Assembly (NCBI GenBank): GCA_963677835.2 | Contig: CAXXUX010000001.1 | Location: forward strand, 467,832-499,831 | Direction: 5' to 3' | From: an uncultured Saccharofermentans sp. | GTDB lineage: Bacteria; Bacillota; Clostridia; Saccharofermentanales; UBA5734 | Length of the DNA: 32,000 bases | Shown: in pieces, positions 5,871-26,330 of the stretch | Layout: every line of letters begins with the position of its first letter | How positions within the stretch are numbered: the stretch's first letter is position 1 | The notes under the pieces: model-generated | Seen by the model: only the letters and a program-made list of their open reading frames with translations | What the model was told of the DNA's origin: nothing | Databases searched by the model: none | Program-made: the position numbers and the translations under genes

Positions 5871-7118
5871 TTATTTCAGCATATCGCTAGCCGGCGTCAA
5901 CTGTTCGCCGATAAAATCGCGGGCATACAATAAATTGACAGCGTCAAGCTGCAGACAGACGATATTGATCTTATCTCCGGACAATACTGCCTGGCGGACA
6001 GTCAATGCCGGCATCGCCGGTTTATTCAGATAAACATTGAAGCGGCTGCCGTCATGCAGGATCTGGAAAGTATTGAGATCATAGAAATAAATGCGGTCGT
6101 CGTCATCCTGGTTATCGGCTATGACAAAACGGTCAAAGTGGATGACCAGCGTTTTGTCGTCCCAGTTGGTAATCTCCCTGATCTTCATATGATAGGACTT
6201 ATAAAACAGCCGTTTACGATTGCTGTCGCCAATGTGCCGATCCAGCCGGTAGAGCATTTCCCATTGGCGGAAACGGTCGACGACCGGCATTTCCAGGTGA
6301 TCCCACAGACGGGAATCCGAAGACCGGCCTAGAAGGCTGGCCAGTTTTTGCTGCTGCAAGGGTCTGGGCGCGCCAAATCGATCCAGCAAAGCCAGGTTGA
6401 TCGGCTCCCATGCGGGCTGCAGCCGGTAGTCCTGCAAATAATGGCTGATAATCGCTATTTGTTCTTTTTCTTCGTTGATCTTGACGGCATGGATAAATAA
6501 TTCGGCATTGTCCTGGATCGACTGGTCAGGGCAAGCCTTGAAATATGAAGCAAGCAGGCTGGCGGCAAATGGGCTATCCGGCAAAATAGTCATTTTAACC
6601 AGATAGTCGCTGACCGGCTCACTCGGTTTAGCCAGCAGCCGGGCAGCCATGCGGTCCGGCAAGGTGTCGTCAATAATCGGCAAATCCGCAACCTGGGCAA
6701 TCGCCCGCAAATAGGGCTGGTCTGCGCTTTTTTCAGCCAATTCGCTTACTATAGCCGATAATACCCGGCTCATCCGGTCATTGGGGTAGTGATGCTGGTA
6801 AAAAGCCCAGCCGGTTTCCGCGAGAGAAGGCGTAATTCTAAGCGTCATAATATTCAGCAAACGCGCTACGGTTGACTCGCCTGATGCTGCCGACATGACT
6901 AGAAGCGCACCAAAAATGTCGTTCAACCGGCGGCGTGGCAGCAGCGTTGTAAAAGACTGCAATTCTTCTTCATTTTGGCAAGCCATGACATCCGCTAAAA
7001 ATTCATGTGCAAGCTGCTCATCAAAAGAACTGGACATTTCTTCCGGAAAAGCAACCTGTCTGCTGATCTGCTGGCGGATACTATGGATCTTGGCATCGGA
7101 TAATTGAAGCATGGTCAT
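5871..7118 (-). CDS. Hypothetical soluble protein (415 aa), downstream partner of the coiled-coil membrane protein
   Basis: Long ORF with a GGGGAG RBS and no TM segments. I recognise no family motif. It is on the same strand as, and 156 nt downstream of, 7275..9899. Confidence 0.6.
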   Translation of the reverse strand: MTMLQLSDAKIHSIRQQISRQVAFPEEMSSSFDEQLAHEFLADVMACQNEEELQSFTTLLPRRRLNDIFGALLVMSAASGESTVARLLNIMTLRITPSLAETGWAFYQHHYPNDRMSRVLSAIVSELAEKSADQPYLRAIAQVADLPIIDDTLPDRMAARLLAKPSEPVSDYLVKMTILPDSPFAASLLASYFKACPDQSIQDNAELFIHAVKINEEKEQIAIISHYLQDYRLQPAWEPINLALLDRFGAPRPLQQQKLASLLGRSSDSRLWDHLEMPVVDRFRQWEMLYRLDRHIGDSNRKRLFYKSYHMKIREITNWDDKTLVIHFDRFVIADNQDDDDRIYFYDLNTFQILHDGSRFNVYLNKPAMPALTVRQAVLSGDKINIVCLQLDAVNLLYARDFIGEQLTPASDMLK

Positions 7119-7274: not shown

Positions 7275-9899
7275 TCATGCTACCGGCGTAGACTGGTTGT
7301 TGGAAATACCGGGCTGGGAGGCATGCCGAATGGCTTCCGGCAAGGCTTCCACGGCGTCGCCCAACTCGGTGGCAGAGCGCGCCAGGCGACGGACAACATC
7401 CGTCACTTCCGTATCAAACTGGCCGAGAATTCCGGAGAGCTCCGAGCGCATGCCCTGGTTGAAATCACCAACGGCACTGCGCAGATTTTCGTTCAGCTTA
7501 TCAATGTCCATATTGATTTCTTGCGCAAACAAGCTCATGCTCCGGGCTTCATCGCCCATAATTTCGGTCAGGCTGCGCAAACTGCCGCCTAAAGTGTCGT
7601 TTTGAGCAATAATCGACGTATCAATATTCTTGACCAGATCCTGGGTCAGGTTGGTAAAGCCCAGCATCAGTTCATCGATGCGGGTAGCCATCTCGTCGGA
7701 AAGAAGGCTGATCTGCTCTCTGACCGCATCCAGATGCTTCTGGTTGATTTCATAGGTTTCCAGCGACTGCGTCTGCATGAGACGAGTCTGTTCGGCCGAA
7801 CCGGCCATGACTGTGCTGAGCACGTCTGACAGGCGCATCAAATCATTGGACATCTGGCTGATCGCTTCACTCAAACCGGACTGGCTGCCGGCGTAAACAC
7901 TGCTCATGACATCCGACGCCTTGCTCATCACACCGGCTGAAGCTTTCAGCGAAACAAGGTCTTCCGTCATCGACTGCCTGGTTTCAACCAACTGGGCAAA
8001 GAGGTTGCGAATGCTCTCCTGCAAAGTAGTCGCCGATTCATTCTGAAGCTTCAGAACATCCTTGACATCCTTGGCATAGACTTGAGCTGCAATCAGTGAA
8101 TCGGACGAAGCCTGCAAGCGTTCGGAAATCGGATCCATATAGACGGCCAGTTTGCCGGATATCTCACCTGCAAAACTGTCGGCCAGCTGCTGCAGCGCCT
8201 CCTGCTGACGGCGGGTCATCTCCGTCAGGGTCTGGTCTTGCGAACGGCGGACATCCATCAGGCTCGATTGCTGAATTGTCATCAGTTTATTCAGAGCAGA
8301 GGCTTGCTGATCATTAACCTTCTGCAAAGCAGACATCTGCTGCTCATTGATCGACTGTAAGGTTTGAGATTGCCGTTGGTCAAGGTTCTGCATGATTTCC
8401 GTCTGGCTGCTGGTTAGGCTAAGGATTGATTCAGAATGCTGGGCCTTCATCTGTTCCAGGCTGTCCTGCTGGAATCGGGAAGCCTGCTGGTAGGCTTGCT
8501 GCTGCTGGTCGGCAATCGACGTAAAGGATTCTTTCTGCTGGTTCAGGAGGCTGTCATAAGCCTGGCTCTGCCGGTCAGCCAGCTTTTGCCAGATGTCGCT
8601 CTGGGTCTGGCGCAGCTGCTGCAGAATACTGTCATATTGATGGGCCAGCGTAGCCGAAGTCTGTTCGCCGGTTGTCGAGATCTGGAGTAAAGTCTGCTGC
8701 TGCTGGTCATTGAGATTGGTCAGCAATTTGGTCTGGCCTTCAGACAATTGGCTGATAATCTGTGTCAGTTTTTCCTGGAGAAGCGACCAGGCTTTCTGGC
8801 TGGAACTGTTGACATGAGTCAGCGTTTTTGTCTGCTCCTCGACAATTTTTTCCAGAGCAAATTTCTGAGCCTTGCCCAAATCATCGACCAGCCGTTCTTC
8901 GCTTCCGGTTATATTCTTTAACATGGCGGCCTGCTGATCAGTCAGTACTTCTGAAATCTCCTGATAACGCTTCAGCCAAAGTTCCGATTGCTTGTGCTGT
9001 CTGGTCTCCAGATCGGTATAAAGCTTCACTATGGCGTGATCCGACTTCTGGAGCTGTTTGTCCAGCTGCTGGGCCAGAAGCGCCAGCGCCTCCGTGCTCT
9101 TGATCACCGCCGGGGCCACTGTTGCGGACATGACGTATTTGACCGAATTAGATATGGCATCGGTCAGTTTATTCGAGACCAGATGCTGGACTTGCTCGGC
9201 CAGGATTTGTGTTGATTGGGACATCCTGGCGTCATAATCCTTCATTTGATTTAAAATGATGGCTGTTTCAGCCGCCTGACTATAAACCGGCAGCCGGCGT
9301 TCCAGCGCAATCATCAGCCGCTGCCAGGCATGGCGGACCTGCCGGAAATAGGCGTCGCTGCCCTGATATAAAACAAGCATGCACAAAGCGGATGCTACAA
9401 ACGGCATCAGCGCGATAAATCTCAGGAAAGCCGCATCCGCCAGCGAACCATTCAGAACAAATCCTGAAGACAACGCCATGGCTGAAACTGCGATGCCGCC
9501 CAAGATGACTGCCGATCCGGTTGACTTGTGAAAGGAAATCCGGGTCGGCTCGGGCAATGTTTCCTGAAGCGGCAGCCGGCTGGCAGGGTCCGGAACCCAT
9601 ATCGACCCAAACATGAGATTGCTGTCTTCCACCAAACGGTCAAATTGCAGCTTGAATTCCTTATTCATCTGCTCGTCGACCAGGGTTTGAACAATAGGCA
9701 GATTTTCAATCCGGCAGCTGGTCAGGGCATCAACCTCCTGTCCCAGCCGATTCAGTTTATTTTTGGCTAAAGTAGCCATGCCATGCATCGTGACAAAAAA
9801 GATCACCGCCAGGGCAATCAGTCCGGCCGTTGACAGCAAAACCAAGATCACCCAGATAATGCCAACTTGTTGAATCAATTCCTGCCACATCTCAATCAT
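7275..9899 (-). CDS. Three-TM membrane protein with a ~690-aa cytoplasmic coiled-coil tail (874 aa); function unknown
   Basis: GGGAGG RBS. TM1 is about aa 13-37, followed by a K/R-rich ~90-aa loop, then a TM2-TM3 hairpin at about aa 128-178, then a Gln-rich alpha-helical tail. Hydrophobic residues recur at exact 11-residue spacing from aa 327 to 569. Confidence 0.8.
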   Translation of the reverse strand: MIEMWQELIQQVGIIWVILVLLSTAGLIALAVIFFVTMHGMATLAKNKLNRLGQEVDALTSCRIENLPIVQTLVDEQMNKEFKLQFDRLVEDSNLMFGSIWVPDPASRLPLQETLPEPTRISFHKSTGSAVILGGIAVSAMALSSGFVLNGSLADAAFLRFIALMPFVASALCMLVLYQGSDAYFRQVRHAWQRLMIALERRLPVYSQAAETAIILNQMKDYDARMSQSTQILAEQVQHLVSNKLTDAISNSVKYVMSATVAPAVIKSTEALALLAQQLDKQLQKSDHAIVKLYTDLETRQHKQSELWLKRYQEISEVLTDQQAAMLKNITGSEERLVDDLGKAQKFALEKIVEEQTKTLTHVNSSSQKAWSLLQEKLTQIISQLSEGQTKLLTNLNDQQQQTLLQISTTGEQTSATLAHQYDSILQQLRQTQSDIWQKLADRQSQAYDSLLNQQKESFTSIADQQQQAYQQASRFQQDSLEQMKAQHSESILSLTSSQTEIMQNLDQRQSQTLQSINEQQMSALQKVNDQQASALNKLMTIQQSSLMDVRRSQDQTLTEMTRRQQEALQQLADSFAGEISGKLAVYMDPISERLQASSDSLIAAQVYAKDVKDVLKLQNESATTLQESIRNLFAQLVETRQSMTEDLVSLKASAGVMSKASDVMSSVYAGSQSGLSEAISQMSNDLMRLSDVLSTVMAGSAEQTRLMQTQSLETYEINQKHLDAVREQISLLSDEMATRIDELMLGFTNLTQDLVKNIDTSIIAQNDTLGGSLRSLTEIMGDEARSMSLFAQEINMDIDKLNENLRSAVGDFNQGMRSELSGILGQFDTEVTDVVRRLARSATELGDAVEALPEAIRHASQPGISNNQSTPVA

Positions 9900-14600: not shown

Positions 14601-15398
14601 TCAGGGCGTTGTTTTTGTTGTTTCCTGAGGCGAGGAGTACTGATAGGGATTGGCCGAACCGCCATCATATGGAGCCCTGCTCCACTGGGTCAAATCATCG
14701 TTTCTCGGCTCAAGCGATTTGATGCCGATAAAGAATAGTGAAATATCGACATTCAACGATTCTGCACTCGTAGAATTGATTTTCAGGTCTGAAACGATAA
14801 TTGAACGGTTTAATCCCTTGAGATCATCGAGCAATTGCAAAATTTGTGCATAAGATGTTTCAGCATTGATTTGGATCGTCAGTTGCTCGACCGCATCACT
14901 GTCCTGATTTTCTTCACTAGGCGTTGTACTCGGCTGGTTGTCAGCCGGTTCGGTCTCCTTGGGAGCGTTGGTTTCGGTATTCTTGTATTGTTCGGCAAGC
15001 TGACCCAGCTGATAGGTCAATTCATTGATATCCAGTTGATTGGGAACCAGGCTGGCGCCTTCAATCATGGATAAGGTATAGGCCGAAGGCAAAAAGCCAT
15101 TTCGCTGCATCAGATCGTGAGTGAACAATAAAAGTGAATCTGATTTCAGGCCGTCAATAAAGGGGGCCGACAGGGTTTCGATCTGTTTCAGGCTCTCATC
15201 ACGCTTCTTGGCAAAAACTTCAGCCATTTTTAAATTCAGGGTGATTTCATCAATCTGCGCATCTAATTCAGCCTGCTTTGTCGTCAATTCATTGAAATGG
15301 TCAAGGCCAGGCGCAAACACAAATTGATACTCGAGATAAAACAATCCGATGATAATCAAAAGTGTCAGTAAAATTATTTCTCGCTTTGAAAGCTTCAT
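14601..15398 (-). CDS. pilO: PilO-like pilus assembly protein
   Basis: N-terminal TM (IILLTLLIIIGLFYL) then a coiled coil. Its start overlaps the pilN stop by 4 nt. The position after pilM-pilN supports the call. Confidence 0.6.
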   Translation of the reverse strand: MKLSKREIILLTLLIIIGLFYLEYQFVFAPGLDHFNELTTKQAELDAQIDEITLNLKMAEVFAKKRDESLKQIETLSAPFIDGLKSDSLLLFTHDLMQRNGFLPSAYTLSMIEGASLVPNQLDINELTYQLGQLAEQYKNTETNAPKETEPADNQPSTTPSEENQDSDAVEQLTIQINAETSYAQILQLLDDLKGLNRSIIVSDLKINSTSAESLNVDISLFFIGIKSLEPRNDDLTQWSRAPYDGGSANPYQYSSPQETTKTTP

Positions 15399-15955
15399 GG
15401 TTGTTCACCTCCGACAATCTGCAAACTGATGGTAAAACTGGTTACACCGTTTGCCGCATCAGTATTCAGCTGACCCAGGATAACATTGGTGAACAGCGGA
15501 CTTCCCAGCAAAGCATGATACATGTCAAGCGGGTCGGTATTATTGCTGCTTTGGCACTGCAAATCCAGAGAATTGCCAATCAGGGAGCTGGCCGTAAATG
15601 CAGTGGTCATTGGCGTCAACTTCCGTAAATCATTTAATAGGGCGCTGTCAACAATATCCAGCTGATTGTATTTATCGGACGCTGCCTGCAGCAGTGTCAA
15701 ATATTTTGCCGTAAGCTCCGCTTCACTTTTGGTTTTGGCAGCGGCATCAATCTTGGCTTTGGTGTCTGAGGAATTGATATATTCGGTCTTTTCGTTAATA
15801 GACTGCTCCATTTTGTTGAAAAGCAGCAGGCCTCCGCCGATCAGCAAGGCATTAACCAAAACAAACAGTGCAAGAAAAACCAGGACAAAGATCCGAAAGC
15901 CATTGTTTTTCGCACGCCTCTTTTTGTATATTGAGAAAAAGTTGATATCGTACAT
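15395..15955 (-). CDS. pilN: PilN-like pilus assembly protein
   Basis: The N-terminal YDINFFS peptide resembles the INLLP PilM-binding motif, followed by a basic stretch and a single TM. It lies directly downstream of pilM. Confidence 0.7.
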   Translation of the reverse strand: MYDINFFSIYKKRRAKNNGFRIFVLVFLALFVLVNALLIGGGLLLFNKMEQSINEKTEYINSSDTKAKIDAAAKTKSEAELTAKYLTLLQAASDKYNQLDIVDSALLNDLRKLTPMTTAFTASSLIGNSLDLQCQSSNNTDPLDMYHALLGSPLFTNVILGQLNTDAANGVTSFTISLQIVGGEQP

Positions 15956-15974
15956 AAAAATGCTTTCCTCCTTC

Positions 15975-17003
15975 TTAACCCTGGTAGCGGATCATGGCGC
16001 CTATGGCATTGATATAGGGCGCGATCGGTTGGTCCTGCGGCATGGTTACTTTGCCCAGCTTGCGGATAACCTCGGTCGGAACGCCGAAAGCCTCGCCCAT
16101 TGTTTTTTCTAAGCCGTTGAAAACCGCCACACGGCCGTACAAATAAATCATTTCAACCCTGCCGTTTTGCAGGCGGCCGGAGAGGAATTGCTGAATCCGC
16201 TGAATGCCGTCGTTGACTGTCGTGACCAGCGGCCGAACCGCGTTACCCAGCGGTTCGTCGCTTCGCAGGCTATTTAATGACAGGTCCAGTTTCTCGATGT
16301 TGATCTGATCATCGGCCGTGGCATCATTATTGTGGGTGGCGACATAGCGTTCAATGTCAATGCCGCCAGCTGGAATAATCCTGGTATAGGTGATTTCACC
16401 ATTGGTGATGATGTAGGCGGTCGAGGTCACGGCGCCCATGTCCAGGTACATGACGCTCGCGCCTTCCCTTTGCGACCGGTCATTGACATCGGTTCCGGCC
16501 AGGGCTTTGCATATGGCATTGGGATGAATATCCAGGGCTATTGGGGTCAGTCCGCAATTGCGCAACAGCTTGTTGTAATCGTTGATGTAGTCCGTCTGCA
16601 TGGCCGAGGCCCGGATATGCAAAAGTTCCGGCTTGTCCGGGATTTTCTGCTTGGAGACGGTATATTCTACAGCGACATCCTTATTGGCGGACATGGAAGA
16701 CTGGACCTCAAAACTCACGACATCGTCCAGCACCTTGGGTTTGGCGTTGGGCACATCCAGCTCGCGGGAATAGATGTGGCTGCCGTTGATCGTCAGAATA
16801 CAGGAACGGTCATGAATCCGGTTTTTAGCCAGCATATTTTTCAGAGCCATTTCCAGGCCGCCGAATTCACGGATGATCCCGTCCTGCATCAGGCCGGATG
16901 GAATCGGTTCAATAAAGGCCTGTCTGATCGAGACCGAAGACCGGCTGGCCTGGCCTTGAACCAGATGAATGGCGCGTGTTCCAATATCGATGGCAATTGA
17001 CAT
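15975..17003 (-). CDS. pilM: PilM, actin-like ATPase-fold pilus assembly protein
   Basis: MSIAIDIGTRAIHLV phosphate-1-like N-terminus, 342 aa, located between pilC and pilN. Confidence 0.85.
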   Translation of the reverse strand: MSIAIDIGTRAIHLVQGQASRSSVSIRQAFIEPIPSGLMQDGIIREFGGLEMALKNMLAKNRIHDRSCILTINGSHIYSRELDVPNAKPKVLDDVVSFEVQSSMSANKDVAVEYTVSKQKIPDKPELLHIRASAMQTDYINDYNKLLRNCGLTPIALDIHPNAICKALAGTDVNDRSQREGASVMYLDMGAVTSTAYIITNGEITYTRIIPAGGIDIERYVATHNNDATADDQINIEKLDLSLNSLRSDEPLGNAVRPLVTTVNDGIQRIQQFLSGRLQNGRVEMIYLYGRVAVFNGLEKTMGEAFGVPTEVIRKLGKVTMPQDQPIAPYINAIGAMIRYQG

Positions 17004-17024
17004 AGTGTATCCTCCTTCAGTCGG

Positions 17025-18233
17025 TCAGGCAATGGCCCCGTACATGGTAAACATGGGCAGGGCGATTGAAATGACGATGAATCCAATGATGATGGCCATA
17101 AAGACAATCATGAGCGGTTCGAGAAGTCCAACGAGCCGGGTGATGGCCGCATCGCTTTCTTCATCAAAAAAGGCTGCGGTTTTGGTCAGGATATCATCCA
17201 GGAGTCCGGACTCCTCGCCGACGCTGATCATATTGTAGATCATTGCCGGGAACTGCTCGGTCTTTTTGATGGCAACGGAAAGCTGTGTGCCTTTGCGAAT
17301 ATCTTCGGTCACGATCAGCAGTTTGTCATGAATAAATTGATTGCCAACGACCCGGGCAGTGATTTCAATGCTCTGCAGCATCTGGATGCCGCTGGACAAT
17401 AGCGTGGAAAGCGTCCGGGCAAAGCGGGCGGCATAGATCATTTTCAAGGACTTGCCGACAATCGGCATAACCAGCTTTTTGGAATCCCACCAAAGGAGAC
17501 CCTTTTCGCTGCGTTTAAATCCGCGCCAGCCGATGATGATGATGATCAGGCCACCGCCGATCATGTACCAGTAACTGGTGATGACATCGCTAAGGCCCAG
17601 CAAAATGCGTGTTGGCAGCGGGACTTCACCGCCGCCTGCCAAAATGATACCGGTAAAGCTGGGTAAAACAACAACCAGCATCAAAACGACTACGACCACC
17701 GTCAGGACAGTCAGGACCATCGGGTAAACCATGGCGCCCTTGATTTTGTTTTTGAGCTTGTTTTCTTTTTCGTAGTGCTCAGCCATGCGGATAAGAACCG
17801 AATCCAGGTTGCCGGCGCTTTCACCCGTCATAACCATGTTGATAAATAATTCCGGGAAAGCGGCTCCCTGTTTGCGGAAAGCCTCGGACATCGCCTCGCC
17901 CTTCTGGACGGCTTCATAAACCCGGCCTATGCAGGCACGAAGATTTTTGTCCATCGTCTGCTGGTAGAGGATGTCCAGGCTCTTGACCGCCGTAATGCCT
18001 GCATTGATCAAGGTAGCGAACTGGCGGCAAAAAATGGCCAAAGGCTTTAGTTTGATCTTTTTGGACATGCTGGCCAAATTACGGGTGCTGGTCTCGACTT
18101 TATCCTCGGCATCCAGGATGAACAAGCCCTTTTCTTTGAGCTTTAAGATCAGCTGGTTTTTGTTGGCGGCCTCGAGGCTGCCCGCAAGCCGCTTGCCGGC
18201 TGCATCGATCGCGGTGTAAGTGAATTGCGGCAT
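17025..18233 (-). CDS. pilC: PilC / GspF-family platform protein
   Basis: 402 aa with two GspF-type repeats and three TM regions. The start MPQFTYTAIDAAGKR..G is typical of PilC. Confidence 0.9.
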   Translation of the reverse strand: MPQFTYTAIDAAGKRLAGSLEAANKNQLILKLKEKGLFILDAEDKVETSTRNLASMSKKIKLKPLAIFCRQFATLINAGITAVKSLDILYQQTMDKNLRACIGRVYEAVQKGEAMSEAFRKQGAAFPELFINMVMTGESAGNLDSVLIRMAEHYEKENKLKNKIKGAMVYPMVLTVLTVVVVVLMLVVVLPSFTGIILAGGGEVPLPTRILLGLSDVITSYWYMIGGGLIIIIIGWRGFKRSEKGLLWWDSKKLVMPIVGKSLKMIYAARFARTLSTLLSSGIQMLQSIEITARVVGNQFIHDKLLIVTEDIRKGTQLSVAIKKTEQFPAMIYNMISVGEESGLLDDILTKTAAFFDEESDAAITRLVGLLEPLMIVFMAIIIGFIVISIALPMFTMYGAIA

Positions 18234-18277
18234 GCAATCCCTCCTGTCTTAATGGATGATTTGCGCAGGATGCTTTT

Positions 18278-19417
18278 TTAGAACATCGCGGAATCGCTGA
18301 TCAGATAGCGCTGCAGCGTTTCCGGATCCTGGCAAAAGGAGAAGGCGGTCTCATTGCTGATCCTGGCCTGGCGAACCAGCTGGGCCAGCGAATAGTCCAT
18401 CGACATCATGCCTTGTTTGAGGCCGGTCTGGATATAGCTCTGAATCTGGTGGACTTTGCCTTCGCGAATGGTGTTTTTGACGGCATCGGTTCCGAGCAGG
18501 ATTTCAAGGGCGGCCACACGGCCTTTGTTGTCGGCCGTGATCAATAATTGCTGGGCGATGATGCCCTGGATAACGCTGGCCAGCTGAACCCTGATCTGGG
18601 TTTGCTGATATGGCGGGAAAACGTCGATGATACGGTCGATCGTTTGGGCGGCGCTGGTCGTATGCAAGGTCGACAGAACCAGATGGCCGGTTTCAGCTGC
18701 GGAAATCGCCGTGCCGATGGTTTCCAGGTCGCGCATTTCGCCGACCAGAATGACGTCGGGGTCTTCGCGCAAGGCTGCCCGCAAGCCATTGGCAAACGTC
18801 TGGCTGTCATCGCCGACTTCCCGCTGGTTGATCATGCTCTTGCGGTGCTTATGCAAATACTCGATCGGCTCTTCCAGCGTCAGGATGTGGCAGCTGCGAG
18901 TGGAATTGATAAAGTCCACCATGGCGGCCAAAGTCGTTGATTTGCCGGAGCCTGTAGGGCCGGTGACCAGAATCAGGCCACGGGGCTTGAGCGCCAGATC
19001 TTCCAGGACTTTTGGCAGTTTCAGGCTGGCGATGGTCGGAATATTGGTCATAATGATACGGATCGCGGCGCCAAGGCTTTTGCGCTGCCGATAGACATTG
19101 ACGCGGAACCGGCTGACATTGGGGATGCCATAGGAAAAATCGACTTCGCCTTTGGTCGCCAGTTCTTCTTTTTGTTTGTGGTTGAGCATCGAAAGGCAAA
19201 GGCGCTCCGTGTGCTCCGGACCCAGAATGTACTCGCGCATGGGAACTAGCAGGCCGTTAACTCGCATCATCGGCGGCAGCGCCACCGTCAAGTGAACATC
19301 CGAAGCCTTGCTTTCCAGCGCCTCAATCAATAGCTCATTCAGAGTCGAGTCGCTTATGACCGCAAAGGACTCCATGTTCATGTCCAGATCCAAGTTGAAA
19401 TTAATCGAGTTGTCCAT
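18278..19417 (-). CDS. pilT: PilT-type retraction ATPase
   Basis: Walker A GPTGSGKSTT. Asp box ALREDPDVILVGEMRD. His box LVLSTLHT. Start chosen at ATG 19417, 8 nt after GGGAAG; GTG 19426 and ATG 19423 are alternatives. Confidence 0.9.
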   Translation of the reverse strand: MDNSINFNLDLDMNMESFAVISDSTLNELLIEALESKASDVHLTVALPPMMRVNGLLVPMREYILGPEHTERLCLSMLNHKQKEELATKGEVDFSYGIPNVSRFRVNVYRQRKSLGAAIRIIMTNIPTIASLKLPKVLEDLALKPRGLILVTGPTGSGKSTTLAAMVDFINSTRSCHILTLEEPIEYLHKHRKSMINQREVGDDSQTFANGLRAALREDPDVILVGEMRDLETIGTAISAAETGHLVLSTLHTTSAAQTIDRIIDVFPPYQQTQIRVQLASVIQGIIAQQLLITADNKGRVAALEILLGTDAVKNTIREGKVHQIQSYIQTGLKQGMMSMDYSLAQLVRQARISNETAFSFCQDPETLQRYLISDSAMF

Positions 19418-19435
19418 TTTCATCACTTCCCTTTA

Positions 19436-21112
19436 CTACTTAGCCTCATCGACTGAATAGGTCACCTTGAGCATTTCCTGCGTCGTTGTAATGCCATCGA
19501 GAACCAGTTTGATACAAGTATCCATCAGGGTTGTCGTCCCCTGACGGATGGCCACAGTTCTGATTTGATCGTCAGAAGCCCGGCGATCAACCAATTCGCG
19601 GATTTCCTTCGTGACAACCAGGATTTCATGAATAGCCGTCCGGCCTTTGTATCCACTAAAGCCACACTCCGGGCAACCGGCGCCGCGAAACAGCGGACGA
19701 GGTTCGCGCATTTTGAGCTGCATGGCTTCGGAGTGGGATGGTTTGTAGGTCTCTTTGCAGCGCGGGCAGATTTTGCGGACCAGGCGCTGTGAAATGATGC
19801 CGACCACTGAAGACGATACCAAATAGGGATCGACGCCCATGTCAACCAGACGCGTCACTGTCGAAGCCGAATCGTTGGTGTGGATGGTGCTTAAGACCAA
19901 ATGTCCGGTGATCGAGGCACGAATGGCAATTTCAGCGGTTTCGCCGTCACGGATTTCACCGATCAGGATGATGTCCGGGTCCTGGCGAAGAATCGAACGG
20001 AGGCCGCTGGCAAAAGTCATGCCGGCCCTGACATTGACCTGGACCTGGTTGACGCCCGCCATGCGGTATTCAACCGGGTCTTCGACGGTGACAATGTTGG
20101 TGGTCGGCTGGTTAAGGTCTTTCAAAACCGTATAGAGGGTCGTCGTTTTACCAGACCCGGTCGGTCCGGAAACCAGGATGATCCCATGCGGGCTTTTGAC
20201 AATGCGCTCGAACAATAATTGATTGGTCTCCGAAAGCCCGAGCATATCGCGGGACAAGGCCACTTCACTGCGCCCCAGGATACGGATAACGACCTTTTCG
20301 CCATTGACCGTCGGCAAGATCGAAAGACGCAGGTCAACCTGGCGTCCGGCGATCACTGTTTCGACACGGCCGTCCTGAGGAATGCGCTTCTCGGCGATAT
20401 CCATGCCGCCGATGATCTTGATGCGGGTGATGACCGCCGCGTGGGCGTTTTTCGGGGCGTTCATGACTTCCTGAAGCACGCCGTCCAGCCGCAGGCGAAC
20501 CCGCATCTGGCCTTCGGTCGGTTCGATATGGATGTCACTGGCATTGATCTTGATGGCATGCTCGATAATCGAATTGACCAGCTTGACGACTGGCGCATTG
20601 GCGACCTCGTCCGTGATCTGCTCGGTAATCCGGACCATCTCGTCGACGTCAAATTCCTTTTCGAGTTCCTGAGCGGCCTTTTGGGCATTTTCCTTGCCAT
20701 AGCTGGCATCGATGGCCGCAAGGATCTGCCGGCGGGTACTCATTTTCGGCAGGATATCCTTACCGGTCAGATAGCGGATTTCATCGATGATGATAAAGTC
20801 CAGCGGATCATTCATGATGACGACCAGTTGGCCATTTTCAAAACCAACCGGTATCGCGCAATACTTTTTGGCATTTTCTTCGCTGATCAGACCAGGCGCC
20901 GCCGAGTCGATCCGAATGTCAGCCATGTCGATATACGGAATCCGGCACTGGTACTCCAGCGCCTTCATGATTTCAATATCGGTCAGCAACCCCATCTCGA
21001 TAATCGTATCGCCCAGCTTATGACCTGTAGTCTGTTGCTGGAACAAAACTTCATCAAGCTGCTCTTGGGTCAACAAACCAGATTCAATTAAGATGTCGCC
21101 AAGTTTCTTCAT
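19436..21112 (-). CDS. pilB: PilB / GspE-family assembly ATPase with an N-terminal MshEN domain
   Basis: Walker A GPTGSGKTTT. Tetracysteine CPRC...CPEC. Tandem MshEN motifs sit at the N-terminus. Start chosen at MKKLGDIL (21112); the ORF stays open to 21160 but has no RBS there. Confidence 0.9.
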   Translation of the reverse strand: MKKLGDILIESGLLTQEQLDEVLFQQQTTGHKLGDTIIEMGLLTDIEIMKALEYQCRIPYIDMADIRIDSAAPGLISEENAKKYCAIPVGFENGQLVVIMNDPLDFIIIDEIRYLTGKDILPKMSTRRQILAAIDASYGKENAQKAAQELEKEFDVDEMVRITEQITDEVANAPVVKLVNSIIEHAIKINASDIHIEPTEGQMRVRLRLDGVLQEVMNAPKNAHAAVITRIKIIGGMDIAEKRIPQDGRVETVIAGRQVDLRLSILPTVNGEKVVIRILGRSEVALSRDMLGLSETNQLLFERIVKSPHGIILVSGPTGSGKTTTLYTVLKDLNQPTTNIVTVEDPVEYRMAGVNQVQVNVRAGMTFASGLRSILRQDPDIILIGEIRDGETAEIAIRASITGHLVLSTIHTNDSASTVTRLVDMGVDPYLVSSSVVGIISQRLVRKICPRCKETYKPSHSEAMQLKMREPRPLFRGAGCPECGFSGYKGRTAIHEILVVTKEIRELVDRRASDDQIRTVAIRQGTTTLMDTCIKLVLDGITTTQEMLKVTYSVDEAK

Positions 21113-21256
21113 GATTTCTCTCTGCCTTTTCCTGCTCAACGGCATGACTAATAATGACAATTATTAATACAAGTCTTATTATACTAATATCAAATGATAA
21201 ATTGAAGGGTTCAGCACAAAATAAGTGCAAATGTCATGGACAAATAATATTTCTGT

Positions 21257-21388: not shown

Positions 21389-21826
21389 TTATTTTTCGAT
21401 AACAACACCTTTTTTAAGAATAATGTTGGCATAGAGCGCTTTTTCTCCACTGGAAAGCACAGCATAGCAACGTCGGGCGCGGTCATAAAAAGCAAAGCGT
21501 TCGACCTCGCCAACCAAGGCAGCGCCACGCGAATCATGCTTCTGGATAATCGCCTTGAATTCATCCCAGATGGGCGTCTCGACCGTATCGCCAGGTGTAA
21601 CCTGCATCAGAGCTACCGGTTTCTCAACAAAGGTGTCCAGCGGGAAAAGCGTTAAAATTGCCTCGAGCAAAGCCGGAACGCCATGGCCATCGCAACGGAC
21701 GACACGGCTGTTCATGCTCGCATGCGGAAAATTGCCGTCACCGATGCAGATTTCATCCCCATGACCCATCTCCATCAGGATTTTCAGAAGTTCAGGCGAC
21801 AAAATCGAAGGTATTCCTTTAAGCAT
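21389..21826 (-). CDS. fucU: L-fucose mutarotase (RbsD/FucU family)
   Basis: MLKGIPSILSPELLKILMEMGHGDEICIGDGNFP...RFAFYDRA...YANIILKKGVV closely parallels E. coli FucU along its length. AAAGGAG RBS before ATG 21826. Confidence 0.85.
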   Translation of the reverse strand: MLKGIPSILSPELLKILMEMGHGDEICIGDGNFPHASMNSRVVRCDGHGVPALLEAILTLFPLDTFVEKPVALMQVTPGDTVETPIWDEFKAIIQKHDSRGAALVGEVERFAFYDRARRCYAVLSSGEKALYANIILKKGVVIEK

Positions 21827-21940
21827 ATAGACTCCTTTCGCCAGTAAATAACTATTCGCCGGCATGAAATATTTTTTATCAGATCAATTGATGAACCATC
21901 AAGAAAATTATAGCTTAATAACCTTTGCAGTCAATAAACT

Positions 21941-23227
21941 TCATAGATTAAAATAGCGGTCCAATTCCGCCATTTGTTCCTTGCTTAAGGGTTGCAAATC
22001 CGATAGCTGCGGAACTGACAGCTGCGTCCTGGCAGAAAATTCAGCCACTTCAAAGCGGTCAAACGCCTGCATCAGGTTATGGCCGGTAGTAATGATGCCG
22101 TCGTTTTCCAGCAGTACGGCCGGTGATTCGGCGGACAGCATGCTGACGACCTTCTTGGGCTCGGTATAATTGATGCCATAAGGAGCCATGGTCAGTTTTT
22201 TAAGCTGGAGGTAGCTCTCCGGCATCAAGTGGGTATTCAGCTCGGCGGTTGTCAGGGTAAAAGCCATCAGATGGGACGGTTGGGCGCAAATAATGGCTTT
22301 AATATCCGGGCGGTGATGATAAATCAATTCATTCAAAAAGACAGCTCGGCTGGGTGATTTCCCTTCTTCTTTCATGCCGCGGCGAACCAGAACCAATTGT
22401 TCTTCCCTGATTTGCCGCCGGTCGGCGCCAAAAGGAGTAATCAAAAATGAACCGTCGCTCAAACGCGTCGAGATTGTCCCCTGTGAGCTCGTAAAGAGCT
22501 GTTGCTCCAACGCCCGGTGAATCATCCGGGTCATATCCCTGCGCAAGGCCAACTCTTCGCTGCTGTGCTGGCGCGGCTTGAATTCGCTAAGCCGAATATG
22601 CGCTTCCGTTCTGGCCAGGTCAATCTGGTGGTCGGTTAATACTTTGGGCTGACCAATGCGCCTGGCGAGCAATTCACTGCGGGCAGCGTATTCAAGCGTC
22701 TCGAAAATCATATAAGCTTGGCCGATTGTATCGGCGGCAACGCACACGCCATGATTCTCCAATAAAACCGCCGAATGGCCTTTGAGAAATTCCGCAGCCA
22801 GATTCTCGCCAAGTTCCGGCGAGCCAATTCTGGCATATGGCGCCAGGCCGACTGAACCGCACACCAGCCGGGTGTTGGGGATCAAATTGATGGTTGGCAC
22901 CTGGTTCATCACGCTGAAAGTGACCAGAGCCGGCGAATGAGCATGCAAGATAGCCCGCGTATTGCCACAGGCTGCGTATATCGCTTGATGGAACAGAAGT
23001 TCGGAGGTTGGTTTTTGGTGTCCATGCTGGCTGCCATCCGGATGGAGGCAGACGATATCGCTGCGCGTCAAATTTCCTTTGTCCACGCCGCCTGGCGTAA
23101 CCCACAAATCACCGTTGGCTTCCCGAATCGAAAGATTGCCGCCGCTCATGGTCGTCAATCCGCCAGAATAAATCCGATTCATAATGGTAACCAATTGGTC
23201 TGCAGGATGCATCATATCGACATGCAT
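21941..23227 (-). CDS. Fused double class II aldolase/adducin-domain protein (FucA-like N-domain, degenerate C-domain)
   Basis: GGGAGG RBS before ATG 23227. Domain 1 has the SE..FH, HAHS and ENHG zinc and catalytic motifs. Domain 2 aligns but reads CAQPSH and ENDG at those positions. Confidence 0.8.
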   Translation of the reverse strand: MHVDMMHPADQLVTIMNRIYSGGLTTMSGGNLSIREANGDLWVTPGGVDKGNLTRSDIVCLHPDGSQHGHQKPTSELLFHQAIYAACGNTRAILHAHSPALVTFSVMNQVPTINLIPNTRLVCGSVGLAPYARIGSPELGENLAAEFLKGHSAVLLENHGVCVAADTIGQAYMIFETLEYAARSELLARRIGQPKVLTDHQIDLARTEAHIRLSEFKPRQHSSEELALRRDMTRMIHRALEQQLFTSSQGTISTRLSDGSFLITPFGADRRQIREEQLVLVRRGMKEEGKSPSRAVFLNELIYHHRPDIKAIICAQPSHLMAFTLTTAELNTHLMPESYLQLKKLTMAPYGINYTEPKKVVSMLSAESPAVLLENDGIITTGHNLMQAFDRFEVAEFSARTQLSVPQLSDLQPLSKEQMAELDRYFNL

Positions 23228-23343
23228 AAGTTTGCCTCCCATTCAATTGTTAAAGATTTTTGAATTGGCAAATGAGCACATACTTTAAATTTTTCTATTT
23301 TAATTCTAACATAATCCACATCAAGAAAGAATCAATTCAACCT

Positions 23344-23379
23344 CGAAAAAGCAAAAAGAGAATCTCGCGATTCTCTTTT
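23344..23379 (-). terminator. Intrinsic terminator following leader-motif copy 1
   Basis: On the - strand, AAAAGAGAAUC-GCGA-GAUUCUCUUUU is followed by UGCUUUUU. Confidence 0.75.
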
Positions 23380-23390
23380 GCCGCTTGATG

Positions 23391-23448
23391 TTCTGGAGTC
23401 AAGCACTCCTTTTTCAGCCTCGCTTTTATGGGATAAACGGGGTTAACC
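23391..23448 (-). promoter_or_regulatory. Conserved leader RNA motif, copy 1 (orphan: own promoter at 23469-23498, terminator at 23344-23379)
   Basis: - strand: GGUUAACCCCGUUUAUCCCAUAAAAGCGAGGCUGAAAAAGGAGUGCUUGACUCCAGAA. Near-identical to copies 2 and 3. Confidence 0.6.
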
Positions 23449-23510
23449 CATCCTTATGCACTAAAAACAGTATAGCACCGCTCACGCCAATGAATCAATA
23501 GAAGTCTGGT

Positions 23511-24524
23511 TTATTGCTTTTCAGAGGCTTTGCTGCGATAAACGATCAAAGTCAGGCTAGCGGCCAGAGCCAATAAAATTGTGCCAATCAATGCCGCATT
23601 CCCTGATTCGCCGGTCTGCGGAATGTCTTCATCGCCGATGGTGGTCGTGGTCGTCGTTGTTACCGAAGCTCCAGGAATCGACGGATCGGTCAGGATGACC
23701 TCCGATGATTCTTCTGAAGTTGTGGTCGCTGTCACGGTCTCCTCAGAAGGAGCCGTATTTGTGGTCGTGACTTCCTGGGTGGTAGTCACTTCCGGCGTTG
23801 TCGTGGTCGTCACTTCCTGGGTGGTGGTCACTTCCGGCGTTGTCGTGGTTGTGACTTCCTGGGTGGTGGTCACTTCCGGCGTTGTCGTGGTCGTCACTTC
23901 CTGGGTGGTGGTCACTTCCGGCGTTGTCGTGGTTGTGACTTCCTGGGTGGTGGTCACTTCCGGCGTTGTCGTGGTTGTGACTCCCTGGGTGGTGGATGAA
24001 TCCCCAGTTGAACCGTTTTTATAAAAAATGGTGAAATGGCTCAGGTTAGCGATGCTGTTGTTGTTTTTCGGGCTATACAAATGGCCGTCGGAATTATTAG
24101 TGCCGTCATAAGTATAAACCAGATAATTGCTTCCGCCTTTAGCCATGAAATAATAAATGCTGATGTTGATGGCATCCCAGCGGTAAATGTAAACAACGCC
24201 TTCAGAATCTTTGGCCAGCCATACTTCCACTTTTTGGGACGGATCGCTGGGATTGACATTAAAGGTGAATTTCACAGGACCATTCTCTGTGCTGCCCAGC
24301 ACAAATCCATCTTCATTGTAATTCTGCTTGAAAAATGAAAATCCGGTCATCGAATCTGGCGTATTCGGCTCATCGACATATTCAGGCAGGACGTTGTCGT
24401 TGCTGCGCGCGTATTCGAGGCTGTAGCCAGGATCCGACGTTGTCCATGCAGACATGACCGACGCCAGGGTAAAAATAATCGAGATAATGACAACTAGAAC
24501 AAGTAATTTTTTAATTCTAAGCAT
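23511..24524 (-). CDS. Sortase-anchored surface protein, paralog A (unrecognised N-terminal domain plus Thr-rich stalk)
   Basis: ATG 24524 lies 7 nt after GGAGG. Signal/TM MLRIKKLLVLVVIISIIFTLASVMSAW. The conserved domain is shared with 24948..25745. Five TTTTTPEVTTTQEV repeats. C-terminal IPQTGESG, then a TM helix and an RSKASEKQ tail. Confidence 0.85.
   Translation of the reverse strand: MLRIKKLLVLVVIISIIFTLASVMSAWTTSDPGYSLEYARSNDNVLPEYVDEPNTPDSMTGFSFFKQNYNEDGFVLGSTENGPVKFTFNVNPSDPSQKVEVWLAKDSEGVVYIYRWDAINISIYYFMAKGGSNYLVYTYDGTNNSDGHLYSPKNNNSIANLSHFTIFYKNGSTGDSSTTQGVTTTTTPEVTTTQEVTTTTTPEVTTTQEVTTTTTPEVTTTQEVTTTTTPEVTTTQEVTTTTTPEVTTTQEVTTTNTAPSEETVTATTTSEESSEVILTDPSIPGASVTTTTTTTIGDEDIPQTGESGNAALIGTILLALAASLTLIVYRSKASEKQ
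23761..23995 (-). repeat. 42-bp in-frame tandem repeat (5.6 units) encoding the Thr-rich stalk
   Basis: Units start at 23761, 23803, 23845, 23887, 23929 and 23971. Units 2 and 4 are identical, as are units 3 and 5, which gives an 84-bp higher-order repeat. Confidence 0.9.
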
Positions 24525-24590
24525 AAAAATACCTCCAGTAAGCAAATCAACAAATATCACTCAAAATTAATATCTGTTGTTTGCTTGCGT

Positions 24591-24649
24591 TTCTGGAGGC
24601 AAGCGCTCTTTTTTCAGCCTCGTTTTTGACAGGATAAACGGGGTTAACC
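24591..24649 (-). promoter_or_regulatory. Conserved leader RNA motif, copy 2 (5' UTR of paralog A)
   Basis: - strand: GGUUAACCCCGUUUAUCCUGUCAAAAACGAGGCUGAAAAAAGAGCGCUUGCCUCCAGAA. CCUCCAG is complementary to the gene's SD region CUGGAGG (24530-24536). Confidence 0.6.
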
Positions 24650-24890
24650 TTTATTCTCTTTTATGATGCCAGTCAGCTTCTGTGCTTGTAACGTCCTCAA
24701 CAAGCATTGAAATGGGGTATCGTTACAACTAGTATAATCATATATGATTATTTAAAATTTGTCATCATCTTTTTGCAAAAAATCTTGATATTTATCAATA
24801 AATTTGTAATCAACTCGTAATATCGTAAAATATGAAGCTATTTGGCAAAATAGGATTACCGATCTTCCTGTTATCAATCAAGCAATCATT

Positions 24891-24917
24891 AAAAGGGCGG
24901 TTACTGCTAACCGCCCC
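24891..24917 (-). terminator. Intrinsic terminator after paralog B
   Basis: On the - strand, GGGCGGUUA-GCAG-UAACCGCCC is followed by UUUUAAUGAUU. Confidence 0.75.
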
Positions 24918-24947
24918 GGTGAATGTAAACTGGATTAGAAATTCAAA

Positions 24948-25745
24948 TTATTGGTGGTTTTTCTTTTGGCTACGGTGCAATAGGATTGTCAGGCTGCCAG
25001 CCAAACCGAGCAAGATCAATCCGATAAGCAAACCGTCGTTGCCACTCTCGCCAGTTTGCGGGATTTCTTCGTCAAGGATGGTAGTCGTCGCTGTTGTTTG
25101 GGTTTGAGTCTCATCTTCTGGCTCGGTAGTCGTTGTTGTCGCTTCTGTGGTGGTTGTCTCAGTTACTGTCTCATCTTCGGGTCCGGTCGTGGTGGTCGTT
25201 GCTTCTGTCGTGGTTGTTTCTTCAGGAGCCGGTTCAAAAACCAGGTCGATATGGCTGATGTCGGCTATATTCTGATCATTGACACCAACCCGCGGGGAAA
25301 TCAGATGTCCGTCATAATCGAAGGTTTCATTATAAGTATAGACAAAGAAATTTTCGCCGCCTTTGACCATGAAATAATGGACCGCGATATTATCTGTTTC
25401 CCAACGGTAAACATAGGTTTTGCCGTCCCCTTCATGATAGGCCAGCCAGACACGAAAGACTTTCGTATTGTCCTCGGGGTCGGGGTAGAATGTGAACAAA
25501 ACCGGCTCGGTCTCCCCATTCAGATGGAATCCGCCGCTGCCATAATCCTGTTTGAAGACGATCAAGCCATCAACAGTACCGGGTGTATTCCCTTCAACAA
25601 ATTCCGGCAAAATCCCCCGGTCGCTTCGGGCAAACTCCAAATCGTAACCCGGATCGACTGCGGTCCAGCCGGTTACAAGATTGACCAAGGTAAATACGAT
25701 CGCTACGGCGATTATCAATACAAGAAACTTTTTCGTTCTTCCCAT
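24948..25745 (-). CDS. Sortase-anchored surface protein, paralog B
   Basis: GGAGGC RBS. Signal/TM MGRTKKFLVLIIAVAIVFTLVNLVTGW. Same conserved domain as paralog A (DPGY.LE.ARS, LPE.V, VY.YRW, YFM.KGG.N..VYTY, DGHL.SP). Thr/Glu-rich stalk. IPQTGESG, then a TM helix and an HRSQKKNHQ tail. Confidence 0.85.
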   Translation of the reverse strand: MGRTKKFLVLIIAVAIVFTLVNLVTGWTAVDPGYDLEFARSDRGILPEFVEGNTPGTVDGLIVFKQDYGSGGFHLNGETEPVLFTFYPDPEDNTKVFRVWLAYHEGDGKTYVYRWETDNIAVHYFMVKGGENFFVYTYNETFDYDGHLISPRVGVNDQNIADISHIDLVFEPAPEETTTTEATTTTTGPEDETVTETTTTEATTTTTEPEDETQTQTTATTTILDEEIPQTGESGNDGLLIGLILLGLAGSLTILLHRSQKKNHQ

Positions 25746-25800
25746 AAAAATGCCTCCTTACTAACAAGTTAAACACTTCAAATCAAGGTTTGACTTGCTA

Positions 25801-25860
25801 TTCTGGAGGCAAGCGACTCTATTTTCAGCCTCGCTTTTAGTCGGATAAACGGGGTTAACC
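25801..25860 (-). promoter_or_regulatory. Conserved leader RNA motif, copy 3 (5' UTR of paralog B)
   Basis: - strand: GGUUAACCCCGUUUAUCCGACUAAAAGCGAGGCUGAAAAUAGAGUCGCUUGCCUCCAGAA. UGCCUCC is complementary to the SD region GGAGGCA (25751-25757). Confidence 0.6.
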
Positions 25861-26202
25861 GGATGATGAGCCTAAAAATCTCCCAGAACTTTTTGTATCA
25901 AACAGCCGCGCAATTTCTAACATCTCAGTTCTGTTCTCCCTTTCTGCTGCATAGATGACTGGCTTCATATGAATGTTAACCGATCATCTTGTTTATGCCT
26001 TTATTATATTCCCTTTTTCATGAATAAAAAAAACGCATTGGTTACGAAAACAGGCATTCACGCAACAAATAGTCTGTTTTTTCCGTTTTAAACATCTGAT
26101 TCGCCAATAAAAACAAGCTGAAAGACTTTTCCCCTTACTGGATATGTCCTGAAAATGCCCCACCCTGTACCTCAGGCAAACTGGCCAAAAGGGAAAATAT
26201 CG

Positions 26203-26254: not shown

Positions 26255-26330
26255 GCGCCTTTAGCTCAGTTGGTAGAGCAACTGACTCTTAATCAGTGGG
26301 CCCCGGGTTCGAGTCCCTGAAGGCGCACCA
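26255..26330 (+). tRNA. tRNA-Lys (anticodon CUU), CCA encoded
   Basis: Acceptor stem GCGCCUU / AAGGCGC. D-arm AGCUCAGUUGGUAGAGC. Anticodon loop CUCUUAA. T-arm GGGUUCGAGUCCC. Discriminator A then CCA. Confidence 0.95.

Follow-up and report, generated by a model that had tools for sequence, protein, structure and literature searches.

The minus strand of a 32,000-nt stretch of DNA from an uncultured Saccharofermentans sp. (contig CAXXUX010000001.1, positions 467,832 to 499,831; the whole stretch is called the window below) contains three units, each about 65-70 nt long, of an apparently undescribed structured RNA of Clostridia-type bacteria. Judged by covariation across the family, each unit is two consecutive H-type pseudoknots built from four covarying helices. 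The units stand mostly in front of genes for secreted and surface proteins, and one segment of the unit is complementary to the Shine-Dalgarno (SD) sequence of the following gene, which makes it probable that the units control whether the ribosome can start translation. Combining a genome scan, a metagenome scan and a covariance model, we found at least 176 units in at least 140 leaders of Clostridia/Bacillota; the counts and percentages given for the family are those among the matches listed, a small sample and a lower bound. The sequences show the family, its four helices, its association with these genes and its SD complementarity. The kind of element, a cis-regulatory leader with SD gating, is already known, while the fold, the modularity and the regulon are new.

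The three copies, read directly from the sequence, lie where an earlier note on this DNA had placed them and match its consensus. The 18-nt 5' block GGTTAACCCCGTTTATCC is present three times without a mismatch and nowhere else in the window, where shuffled sequences contain 0.02 matches on average and none of 100 shuffles reaches three. The pairwise identity among the three units is 77-82%, compared with 58% for the coding DNA of the two paralogous genes downstream (paralogs A and B) and 46% for their proteins, indicating that the RNA is more strongly constrained than the genes. The upstream flanks are about 50% identical, which is the alignment baseline, and are thus unrelated between copies, as had been noted. 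The length of about 58 nt proposed at that time turned out to be too short, since each copy had been stopped at CUCCAGAA and the 3' strand of the hairpin P3 was left out; the true 3' ends are about 23383, 24583 and 25793 (minus strand). In P3, GCUUGC pairs with GCAAGC in copy 2 and with GCAAGU in copy 3, and in copy 1 a compensatory change gives GCUUGA with UCAAGC. The claim that the copies lie upstream of surface-protein genes holds for copies 3 and 2, which are 41 and 52 nt upstream of paralogous genes for sortase-anchored proteins with IPQTGESG, but not for copy 1, which comes after the stop codon of paralog A and has an intrinsic terminator, then a class II aldolase gene and FucU, behind it. 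The units (helices assigned by family covariation) and the two genes are as follows:

25793-25861 (-), unit 3, in the leader of paralog B, model score 73.2 bits: S1 CGG 25861-25859 with CCG 25844-25842; L1 UUAA 25858-25855; S2 CCCCGUUU 25854-25847 with AAGCGAGG 25836-25829; linker CUGAAAAU 25828-25821; P2 AGAG 25820-25817 with CUCC 25808-25805; P3 GCUUGC 25814-25809 with GCAAGU 25798-25793.
24583-24650 (-), unit 2, in the leader of paralog A, model score 76.6 bits: S1 AGG 24650-24648 with CCU 24633-24631; S2 24643-24636 with 24625-24618; linker 24617-24610; P2 AGAG 24609-24606 with CUCC 24598-24595; P3 GCUUGC 24604-24599 with GCAAGC 24588-24583.
23383-23451 (-), unit 1, a stand-alone or 3'-untranslated-region (3'-UTR) unit, model score 76.5 bits: S1 AUGGG 23451-23447 with CCCAU 23432-23428 (5 bp); S2 23442-23435 with 23425-23418; linker 23417-23410; P2 GGAG 23409-23406 with CUCC 23398-23395 (full 4 bp); P3 GCUUGA 23404-23399 with UCAAGC 23388-23383.
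24948-25745 (-), paralog B, a 265-aa surface protein with signal peptide, Thr-rich linker, IPQTGESG, transmembrane helix and basic tail.
23511-24524 (-), paralog A, a 337-aa surface protein with an N-terminal domain as in B (46% identity), a Thr-rich repeat and IPQTGESG.

Within each unit, S1 crosses S2 to form the first pseudoknot (PK-A) and P2 crosses P3 to form the second (PK-B), and the invariant linker CUGAAAAN joins the two; about 25 nucleotides per unit are near-invariant. PK-A and PK-B are built alike, each from a covarying stem, (UU)AA, CC-N-C, a partner strand, an A-rich loop and G-A-GGC, and PK-B modules are also found repeated alone. The architecture of a single hairpin, as first proposed, is only partly right: the hairpin CCCCGUUU/AAARCGAGG exists as helix S2, but S2 is only one of four helices. 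S2 (pattern CC-N-CGYUN / NARCG-A-GG) is 95% paired and covaries, with none of 500 shuffles as high as observed. Its G/A position stays paired across the family (U-A 57, C-G 25, U-G 23), as had been expected, a second covarying pair is G-C in 76 cases and U-A in 9, and the conserved N.A mismatch becomes G-C in locus L063. The variable 4-5 nt taken for a loop are indeed the loop of S2, but they also hold the 3' strand of S1, in which the 3-5 nt before UUAACC pair with the nucleotides right after the 5' strand of S2. S1 varies in step among the window copies (AUGGG/CCCAU, AGG/CCU, CGG/CCG). Under an anchored rule, 72% of cognate pairings have an S1 of at least 3 bp, compared with 25% of non-cognate pairings, and none of 2000 permutations is as good; the pair types include CGC/GCG, CGU/ACG, AGG/CCU, CGG/CCG, GGG/CCC, UGG/CCA and UGC/GCA.

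The helix P2 is formed by the RGAG block and CUCC, the very segment that the earlier note named anti-SD. Where the 3' half was left unconstrained, its variants include GGAG/CUCC, GGGG/CCCC, GAGG/CCUC, GCCG/CGGC, GUCG/CGAC, CCGG/CCGG, GAAG/CUUC and AGAA/UUCU. On an alignment which was not fitted to P2, the helix is 92% paired, falling to about 40% with partners shifted by one column, and one of its pairs is A-U in 59, G-C in 17, G-U in 5 and C-G in 3 cases. As for P3, all 6 pairs are changed on both sides within the family; it is just 41% paired on the metagenome alignment before re-registering, and the P3 register of the covariance model fits type-A units only. Covariation, which the earlier note had suggested testing, is thus seen in S1, S2, P2 and P3, in S2 against shuffles and in S1 against permutations. 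The first cognate/non-cognate helix test, on the pattern-selected genome set, was weakly positive at low diversity and was repeated on the enlarged set. Single-sequence folds of the 58-75-nt core are no stabler than shuffles (z -0.1 to -0.8), which we do not count against structure, because ViennaRNA cannot represent pseudoknots. There is also a type C variant (L088 5359-5567, L112 111-313, L153 112-316, L129 and L085), in which the PK-B loop CCCUAnAUAG replaces CUCCAGAA and P2 is AGG(A)/(U)CCU, which shows the 3' half to vary more freely than the 5' half.

The scans and the covariance model, the latter also suggested in the earlier note, recovered a widespread family and not a local oddity, with members scoring 50-81 bits and chance pattern matches at most 27 bits. 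The genome scan, for which two invariant blocks served as query, gave 70 loci; about 46 also contain the 5' block, which had not been selected, and these are all Bacillota, while about 24 of the 70 are chance matches in other phyla. The metagenome scan kept the 5' half fixed and the 3' half free, and its matches, among those listed, come mostly from termite-gut and digester samples. Members include Sinanaerobacter chloroacetimidivorans BAD-6 and Sporosarcina sp. 179-K, which are cultured, and Ca. Formimonas warabiya DCMF, which has a complete genome. Two loci with typical units carry non-Bacillota labels, L046 (Solirubrobacterales) and L053 (Dehalococcoidia); the L046 contig is AT-rich and has a tRNA array. 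These labels are probably binning errors of metagenome-assembled genomes, not true occurrence outside Bacillota.

The earlier note could not match the motif to any riboswitch or leader class, and we came to the same result: none of the 4227 models of Rfam 15 matched at gathering score or E<=10, and the most divergent type B/C arrays had no match at E<=1. What the Rfam searches returned were tRNAs, cyclic di-GMP (c-di-GMP)-I riboswitches and sub-threshold chance matches (IS009, SNORD48, isrJ). The three copies were matched by neither the c-di-GMP-I (RF01051) nor the c-di-GMP-II (RF01786) model, whether at gathering score or at E<=10, and the same searches do recover genuine c-di-GMP-I aptamers, for example at 512-600 of the window. 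We found no description of such an RNA in the literature or in RNA-motif catalogue papers, and absence there is no proof of novelty.

In 127 of 132 leaders a same-strand SD and open reading frame (ORF) follow closely (median 31 nt), and the products are signal-peptide-like in 87% of cases, compared with 33% for other ORFs in the same loci. They comprise LPXTG-type sortase substrates, thioester-domain (TED) adhesins, FctA/SpaA pilin domains, DUF11/DUF7507 proteins, BspA leucine-rich repeats (LRR_5), RCC1-repeat proteins and cohesin/dockerin enzymes. An undescribed cis-regulatory RNA dedicated to the IPxTGESG family had been suggested; the RNA is structured and without an Rfam match, but it serves diverse secreted and surface proteins across Bacillota, and the IPxTGESG family of the window has 5 members only. 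In two metagenomic orthologous loci the motif occurs at both orthologous positions with compensatory hairpin changes.

The complementarity of 7 nt between unit and SD, claimed for both paralogs, is real: CCUCCAG 24599-24593 pairs with CUGGAGG 24538-24532 of A, and UGCCUCC 25811-25805 with GGAGGCA of B. The two expression platforms are:

24522-24557 (-), expression platform of paralog A: SD CUGGAGG 24538-24532, ATG 24524-24522.
25743-25770 (-), expression platform of paralog B: SD GGAGGC 25757-25752, ATG 25745-25743.

In the leader of A, the strand AUAUUUGUUGAUUUGCUUACUGGAGG (24557-24532) is the 3' strand of a long helix (the OFF helix) and pairs with CCUCCAG 24599-24593 and with 24588-24570, that is, the P3 3' strand and the bases following it; the minimum free energy (MFE) is -38.2 kcal/mol (z = -4.46; none of 200 shuffles is as stable) and the cognate SD duplex has -19.7 kcal/mol. 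In the leader of B, the partners of AACUUGUUAGUAAGGAGGC (25770-25752) are GCCUCC and the P3 3' strand; the MFE is -39.5 kcal/mol (z = -3.95) and the cognate duplex has -17.8 kcal/mol. The minimum-energy fold of both window leaders therefore buries the SD, with the P3 3' strand swapped into the long downstream helix, and because the 3' strands of both P2 and P3 are used in the OFF helix, the folded unit and SD sequestration are mutually exclusive. The three-state switch that had been proposed (anti-anti-SD, anti-SD, SD) stands as far as the SD-sequestering alternative fold is concerned (z -4.5 and -4.0), but the anti-anti-SD is RGAG and not GAGGC; we rejected the pairing of GAGGC with GCCUC, as GAGG takes part in S2 and GAGGC finds no partner in most members, where the sequence is ACUCC. 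Across 108 leaders, the segment P2-3'/L3 pairs better with its own SD than with those of others (0 of 5000 permutations), and several pairs have long co-evolved SD extensions, such as CCUCCAGAAUAAUG with CAUUAUUUUGGAGG in L010. The OFF fold has -39.5 kcal/mol, compared with -20 to -29 for the nested parts of the unit alone, which suggests that crossing helices, tertiary contacts and probably an effector are needed, that is, an ON-type logic.

Copy 1 is of another kind. Three features surround it:

23469-23498 (-), promoter-like site before unit 1: -35 TTGATT 23498-23493, extended -10 TGCTATACT 23477-23469.
23346-23380 (-), intrinsic terminator directly after unit 1: CAAAAGAGAAUC-GCGA-GAUUCUCUUUUUG then CUUUUU.
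23303-23311 (-), second extended -10 TGTTAGAAT, in the invariant block ATTATGTTAGAATTA of the three-genome alignment.

By promoter scan and three-genome alignment, the orthologous loci L001 and L002 share the promoter-like site and also keep the terminator, the latter with compensatory changes. The second site is likely the aldolase gene's own promoter, and unit 1 with its terminator would then be a separate small transcription unit. Judged by its sequence, copy 1 is a predicted promoter-unit-terminator cassette conserved in three genomes and not a surface-gene leader, and in cassettes of this type the unit begins about 12-20 nt after the predicted transcription start. Terminators follow just 7 of the 176 units (among the matches listed). 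In five related genomes all terminated units (6 of 6) have the full GGAG/CUCC P2 and a longer S1, and all gene-leader units (6 of 6) have AGAG/CUCC. In L012, units lie in 3' UTRs, and P3 with a U-tract serves as terminator.

Besides single units there are arrays: 24 leaders hold 2-4 units each, at periods of about 64-70 nt (range 55-125), and half-units occur. For example, three to five units or half-units stand directly upstream of signal-peptide ORFs in L133 (3929-4208), L139 (1179-1427), L140 (2632-2846), L152 (224-438) and L110 (149-475). Helices covary even between units within one array, such as GGGG/CCUC, GGAG/CUCC and GGGG/CCCC in L140. Two leaders, L054 1878-2094 (+) and L037 4892-4630 (-), are composite, with the order c-di-GMP-I aptamer, intrinsic terminator, 35-55 nt spacer, unit, SD and start codon, which on the strength of this order appears to be a two-layer control architecture; the Rfam searches found no further c-di-GMP riboswitch in 60 other loci.

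Taken together, we favour a modular leader RNA in which the fold of the unit gates the SD and the effector is probably a trans-acting protein with decoy small RNAs, a reading which we hold to have about the same chance of being right as of being wrong. What we infer is which way the switch works and what kind of effector acts on it. When the unit is folded, the SD would be free and translation ON; when it is unfolded, CUCC with the following AGAA and the P3 3' strand would bury the SD and translation would be OFF. By nested-helix energies the OFF fold would be the default ground state, and a stabilising factor would have to favour the folded unit. The putative trans-acting factor would recognise the invariant platform UUAACC / GAGGCUGAAAA / AGAA and would probably be a protein, a global post-transcriptional regulator of surface proteins, and units like copy 1, which are terminated and pair more stably, are predicted to be decoy small RNAs. 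We prefer a trans factor with decoys to a small-molecule ligand because of the arrays, the PK-B-only repeats, the terminated class, the cassette of copy 1 and the composite leaders, features which fit a trans factor somewhat better than a classical single-ligand riboswitch. Several points weigh against this view. A compact pseudoknotted fold with invariant junction nucleotides suits a small-molecule aptamer equally well; no protein family recurs beside the units (any one family accounts for 2 of 84 neighbours at most); the mean gain in pairing with the own SD is small (-8.96 vs -8.24 kcal/mol); and some terminal units have a P2 of GCCG/CGGC, which is unable to serve as anti-SD, so that SD sequestration is common and not universal. 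In a wider sense, the units may be cis tags of a global post-transcriptional cell-surface regulon, read by an RNA-binding protein with decoys or by a new ligand, which we regard as an evenly balanced proposition.

If the unit or each of its pseudoknots were instead a small-molecule aptamer, the ligand would lock PK-B and free the SD, and candidates are nucleotide second messengers, possibly a third c-di-GMP class. Complete aptamers can be small H-type pseudoknots, as in preQ1-I, SAM-II and guanidine-III. The leaders have two marks of riboswitches, a covarying aptamer-like fold and, in the window leaders, an expression platform which overlaps it; the compact pseudoknotted fold with its near-invariant nucleotides and covarying stems, the varied expression platforms (mostly SD sequestration, few terminators) and the lack of a co-localised protein partner among the neighbour genes compared all agree with such a role. 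The downstream gene class is also that of c-di-GMP riboswitch targets, and the c-di-GMP-I riboswitch of the window itself precedes a SpaA/DUF11/DUF7507/LPXTG protein. However, arrays of 3-4 units and PK-B-only repeats without expression platforms of their own are atypical of riboswitches, a ligand sensor hardly accounts for stand-alone units that carry a promoter and a terminator, the genes downstream have a cellular location in common but no metabolic pathway from which a ligand could be guessed, and a second c-di-GMP sensor in the L054 and L037 leaders would be redundant, even if a two-input gate is possible. We consider the riboswitch rather unlikely on balance. It is more doubtful still, and in our estimate improbable, that the unit is a constitutive structural module which protects the mRNA from 5'-to-3' decay by RNase J, enhances translation or localises the mRNAs of highly expressed secreted proteins, in the manner of viral exonuclease-resistant RNAs or the tandem pseudoknots of tobamovirus UTRs. 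Tandem arrays of rigid pseudoknots, the association with an abundant extracellular protein class and not a pathway, the position behind an independent c-di-GMP-I sensor in composite leaders, and the short distance (about 12-20 nt) of copy 1-type units from the predicted transcription start would all suit it, but the co-evolved complementarity between unit and own SD and the very stable OFF fold imply conditional behaviour. P2 is weaker in gene-leader than in terminated units, as expected for tuned bistability, in L054 and L037 over 120 nt separate the unit from the 5' end, and the terminated stand-alone copies have nothing downstream to protect.

The conserved promoter-unit-terminator cassettes and the units ending in P3 and a U-tract also allow the view that a trans-acting small RNA is the functional form, made as copy 1-type units from an own promoter or from 3' UTRs, with the leaders as its targets or relatives; it would act by RNA-RNA pairing, for example of the anti-SD loop with the SDs of other mRNAs, and the element CUCCAGAA has its complement in the UUCUGGAGG SD regions typical of family genes. 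We think this very unlikely, for terminated units are 7 of 176 and confined to the clade of the window, and CUCC is paired in P2 of the folded unit, with the full 4 bp in precisely these copies, so that the proposed seed is hidden. Least probable of all, with hardly a chance, is an element acting at the level of DNA or a selfish one, be it a REP- or MITE-like repeat (repetitive extragenic palindrome, miniature inverted-repeat transposable element), an alternative sigma site, or a coding repeat or upstream ORF (uORF). The units are repeated and sometimes in tandem, some arrays having a 69-nt period, and the 5' half (AACCCC...CGA) may loosely resemble sigma-I-type -35/-10 elements. On the other side, the context is specific in strand and position, with 127 of 132 upstream of a same-strand ORF, the compensatory changes in four helices matter only in single-stranded RNA, sigma-70 promoters lie upstream of the units, and there is no phage association; this reading is thus largely refuted. 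The earlier note had named a repetitive extragenic element, scattered regardless of gene context, as a finding that would speak against a regulator; the units strictly precede ORFs on the same strand, and their conservation, with compensatory changes, extends across genera. A phage or mobile origin was not supported, as the 5 viral pattern matches were all chance (at most 14 bits). We also rejected a leader peptide, uORF or coding repeat, since open frames occur in 76% of leaders vs 80% of shuffles, just 13 of 140 leaders have an in-frame SD and start, and the periods of the arrays are no multiples of three.

Several known systems share features with the unit. The SD-sequestering pseudoknot riboswitches (preQ1-II/III, SAM-II/SAM-V, guanidine-III, NAD+-II) are likewise small and H-type with an A-rich third loop, and their pseudoknot strand doubles as anti-SD in cis, tens of nt from the start codon. 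Unlike them, the new unit has no covariance-model match, consists of two seemingly homologous pseudoknots, occurs in arrays of up to four and as PK-B-only repeats, and precedes surface-protein genes, not those of biosynthesis or transport. The c-di-GMP-I/II (GEMM) riboswitches control the same gene class (LPXTG adhesins, pilins, type IV pili) in the same genomes, but the sequence and fold of the new unit are unrelated; its place downstream of c-di-GMP-I and a terminator in L054 and L037 makes it an additional layer and not a variant, and this tandem placement argues against simple redundancy as a c-di-GMP aptamer. In the CsrA/RsmA-CsrB/RsmZ and EutV-EutX/Rli55 circuits, too, a repeated element lies near the SD in leaders, with several copies per RNA, separate RNAs with the same element act as possible decoys (here predicted) and the regulon is defined by lifestyle; the unit differs from them in being a double pseudoknot of roughly 65 nt, not a GGA hairpin or an ANTAR dual hairpin, and the RGAG block, often AGAG and covarying (GCCG/CGGC, GUCG/CGAC, CCGG/CCGG), is thus not a CsrA site. 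Modules of viral UTRs, such as the exoribonuclease-resistant RNAs (xrRNAs) of flaviviruses and the upstream pseudoknot domain of tobamoviruses, are also head-to-tail pseudoknots of about 35-70 nt with conserved loop nucleotides, whereas the bacterial unit lies in a 5' leader beside the SD and has a co-evolved, SD-sequestering alternative fold. Processive antitermination RNAs (EAR of Bacillus eps, HK022 put) are structured leaders as well, EAR has a pseudoknot, and genes for extracellular or biofilm functions in Firmicutes lie downstream. The new unit has no Rfam match and abuts the SD, and the genes downstream are mostly single and often short, unlike the position of EAR/put far upstream of a long operon.

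With this family, the few orphan cis-regulators known from bacteria would gain a widespread structured class. In Clostridia of gut, rumen, termite gut and digesters, its regulon comprises adhesins, sortase pili, BspA-type LRR proteins and cohesin/dockerin enzymes, which determine attachment, biofilm formation and fibre degradation. To our knowledge, the post-transcriptional coordination of such surface proteins is largely undescribed outside c-di-GMP riboswitches. If the cis-tag reading is true, the regulon covers sortase-anchored adhesins, pilins and cellulosome components of the Gram-positive surface, the arrays of double pseudoknots would set sensitivity, and layering behind c-di-GMP-I would be a two-step control. 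At least three members come from named organisms, two of them cultured, and the question is directly testable; arrays, half-units and stand-alone copies are unusual and thus informative on how regulatory RNAs are built.

What's more, several other features of the window and the loci were observed. Inside paralog A, a 42-nt tandem repeat at 23761-23995 (-), with 5.6 copies and 95% identity, encodes the threonine-rich linker TTTPEVTTTQEV, and the version in paralog B is shorter and degenerate. A tRNA-Lys(CUU) gene at 26255-26330 (+) is divergent from unit 3, its position is kept in L001 and L002, and tRNA genes near units are also found in L045, L046, L077, L119 and L131, which may be coincidence. 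The c-di-GMP-I riboswitch of the window (512-600, +, 61.5 bits) lies upstream of the ORF 855-5267 (+), a 1470-aa SpaA/DUF11/DUF7507/LPXTG surface protein of a class that in other genomes is encoded behind the new unit. After the aldolase and FucU genes, a type IV pilus cluster follows on the same strand (14601-21160 and 21389-23227, both -), with PilB-like and PilT-like ATPases and, according to the annotation of locus L003, downstream ORFs for PilC, PilM, PilN and PilO-like proteins; the synteny from aldolase to pilus ATPase is kept in L001. Between the adhesin gene controlled by c-di-GMP-I and the pilus cluster sit two ORFs with no Pfam match, 5871-7118 (-, 415 aa) and 7275-9899 (-, 874 aa).

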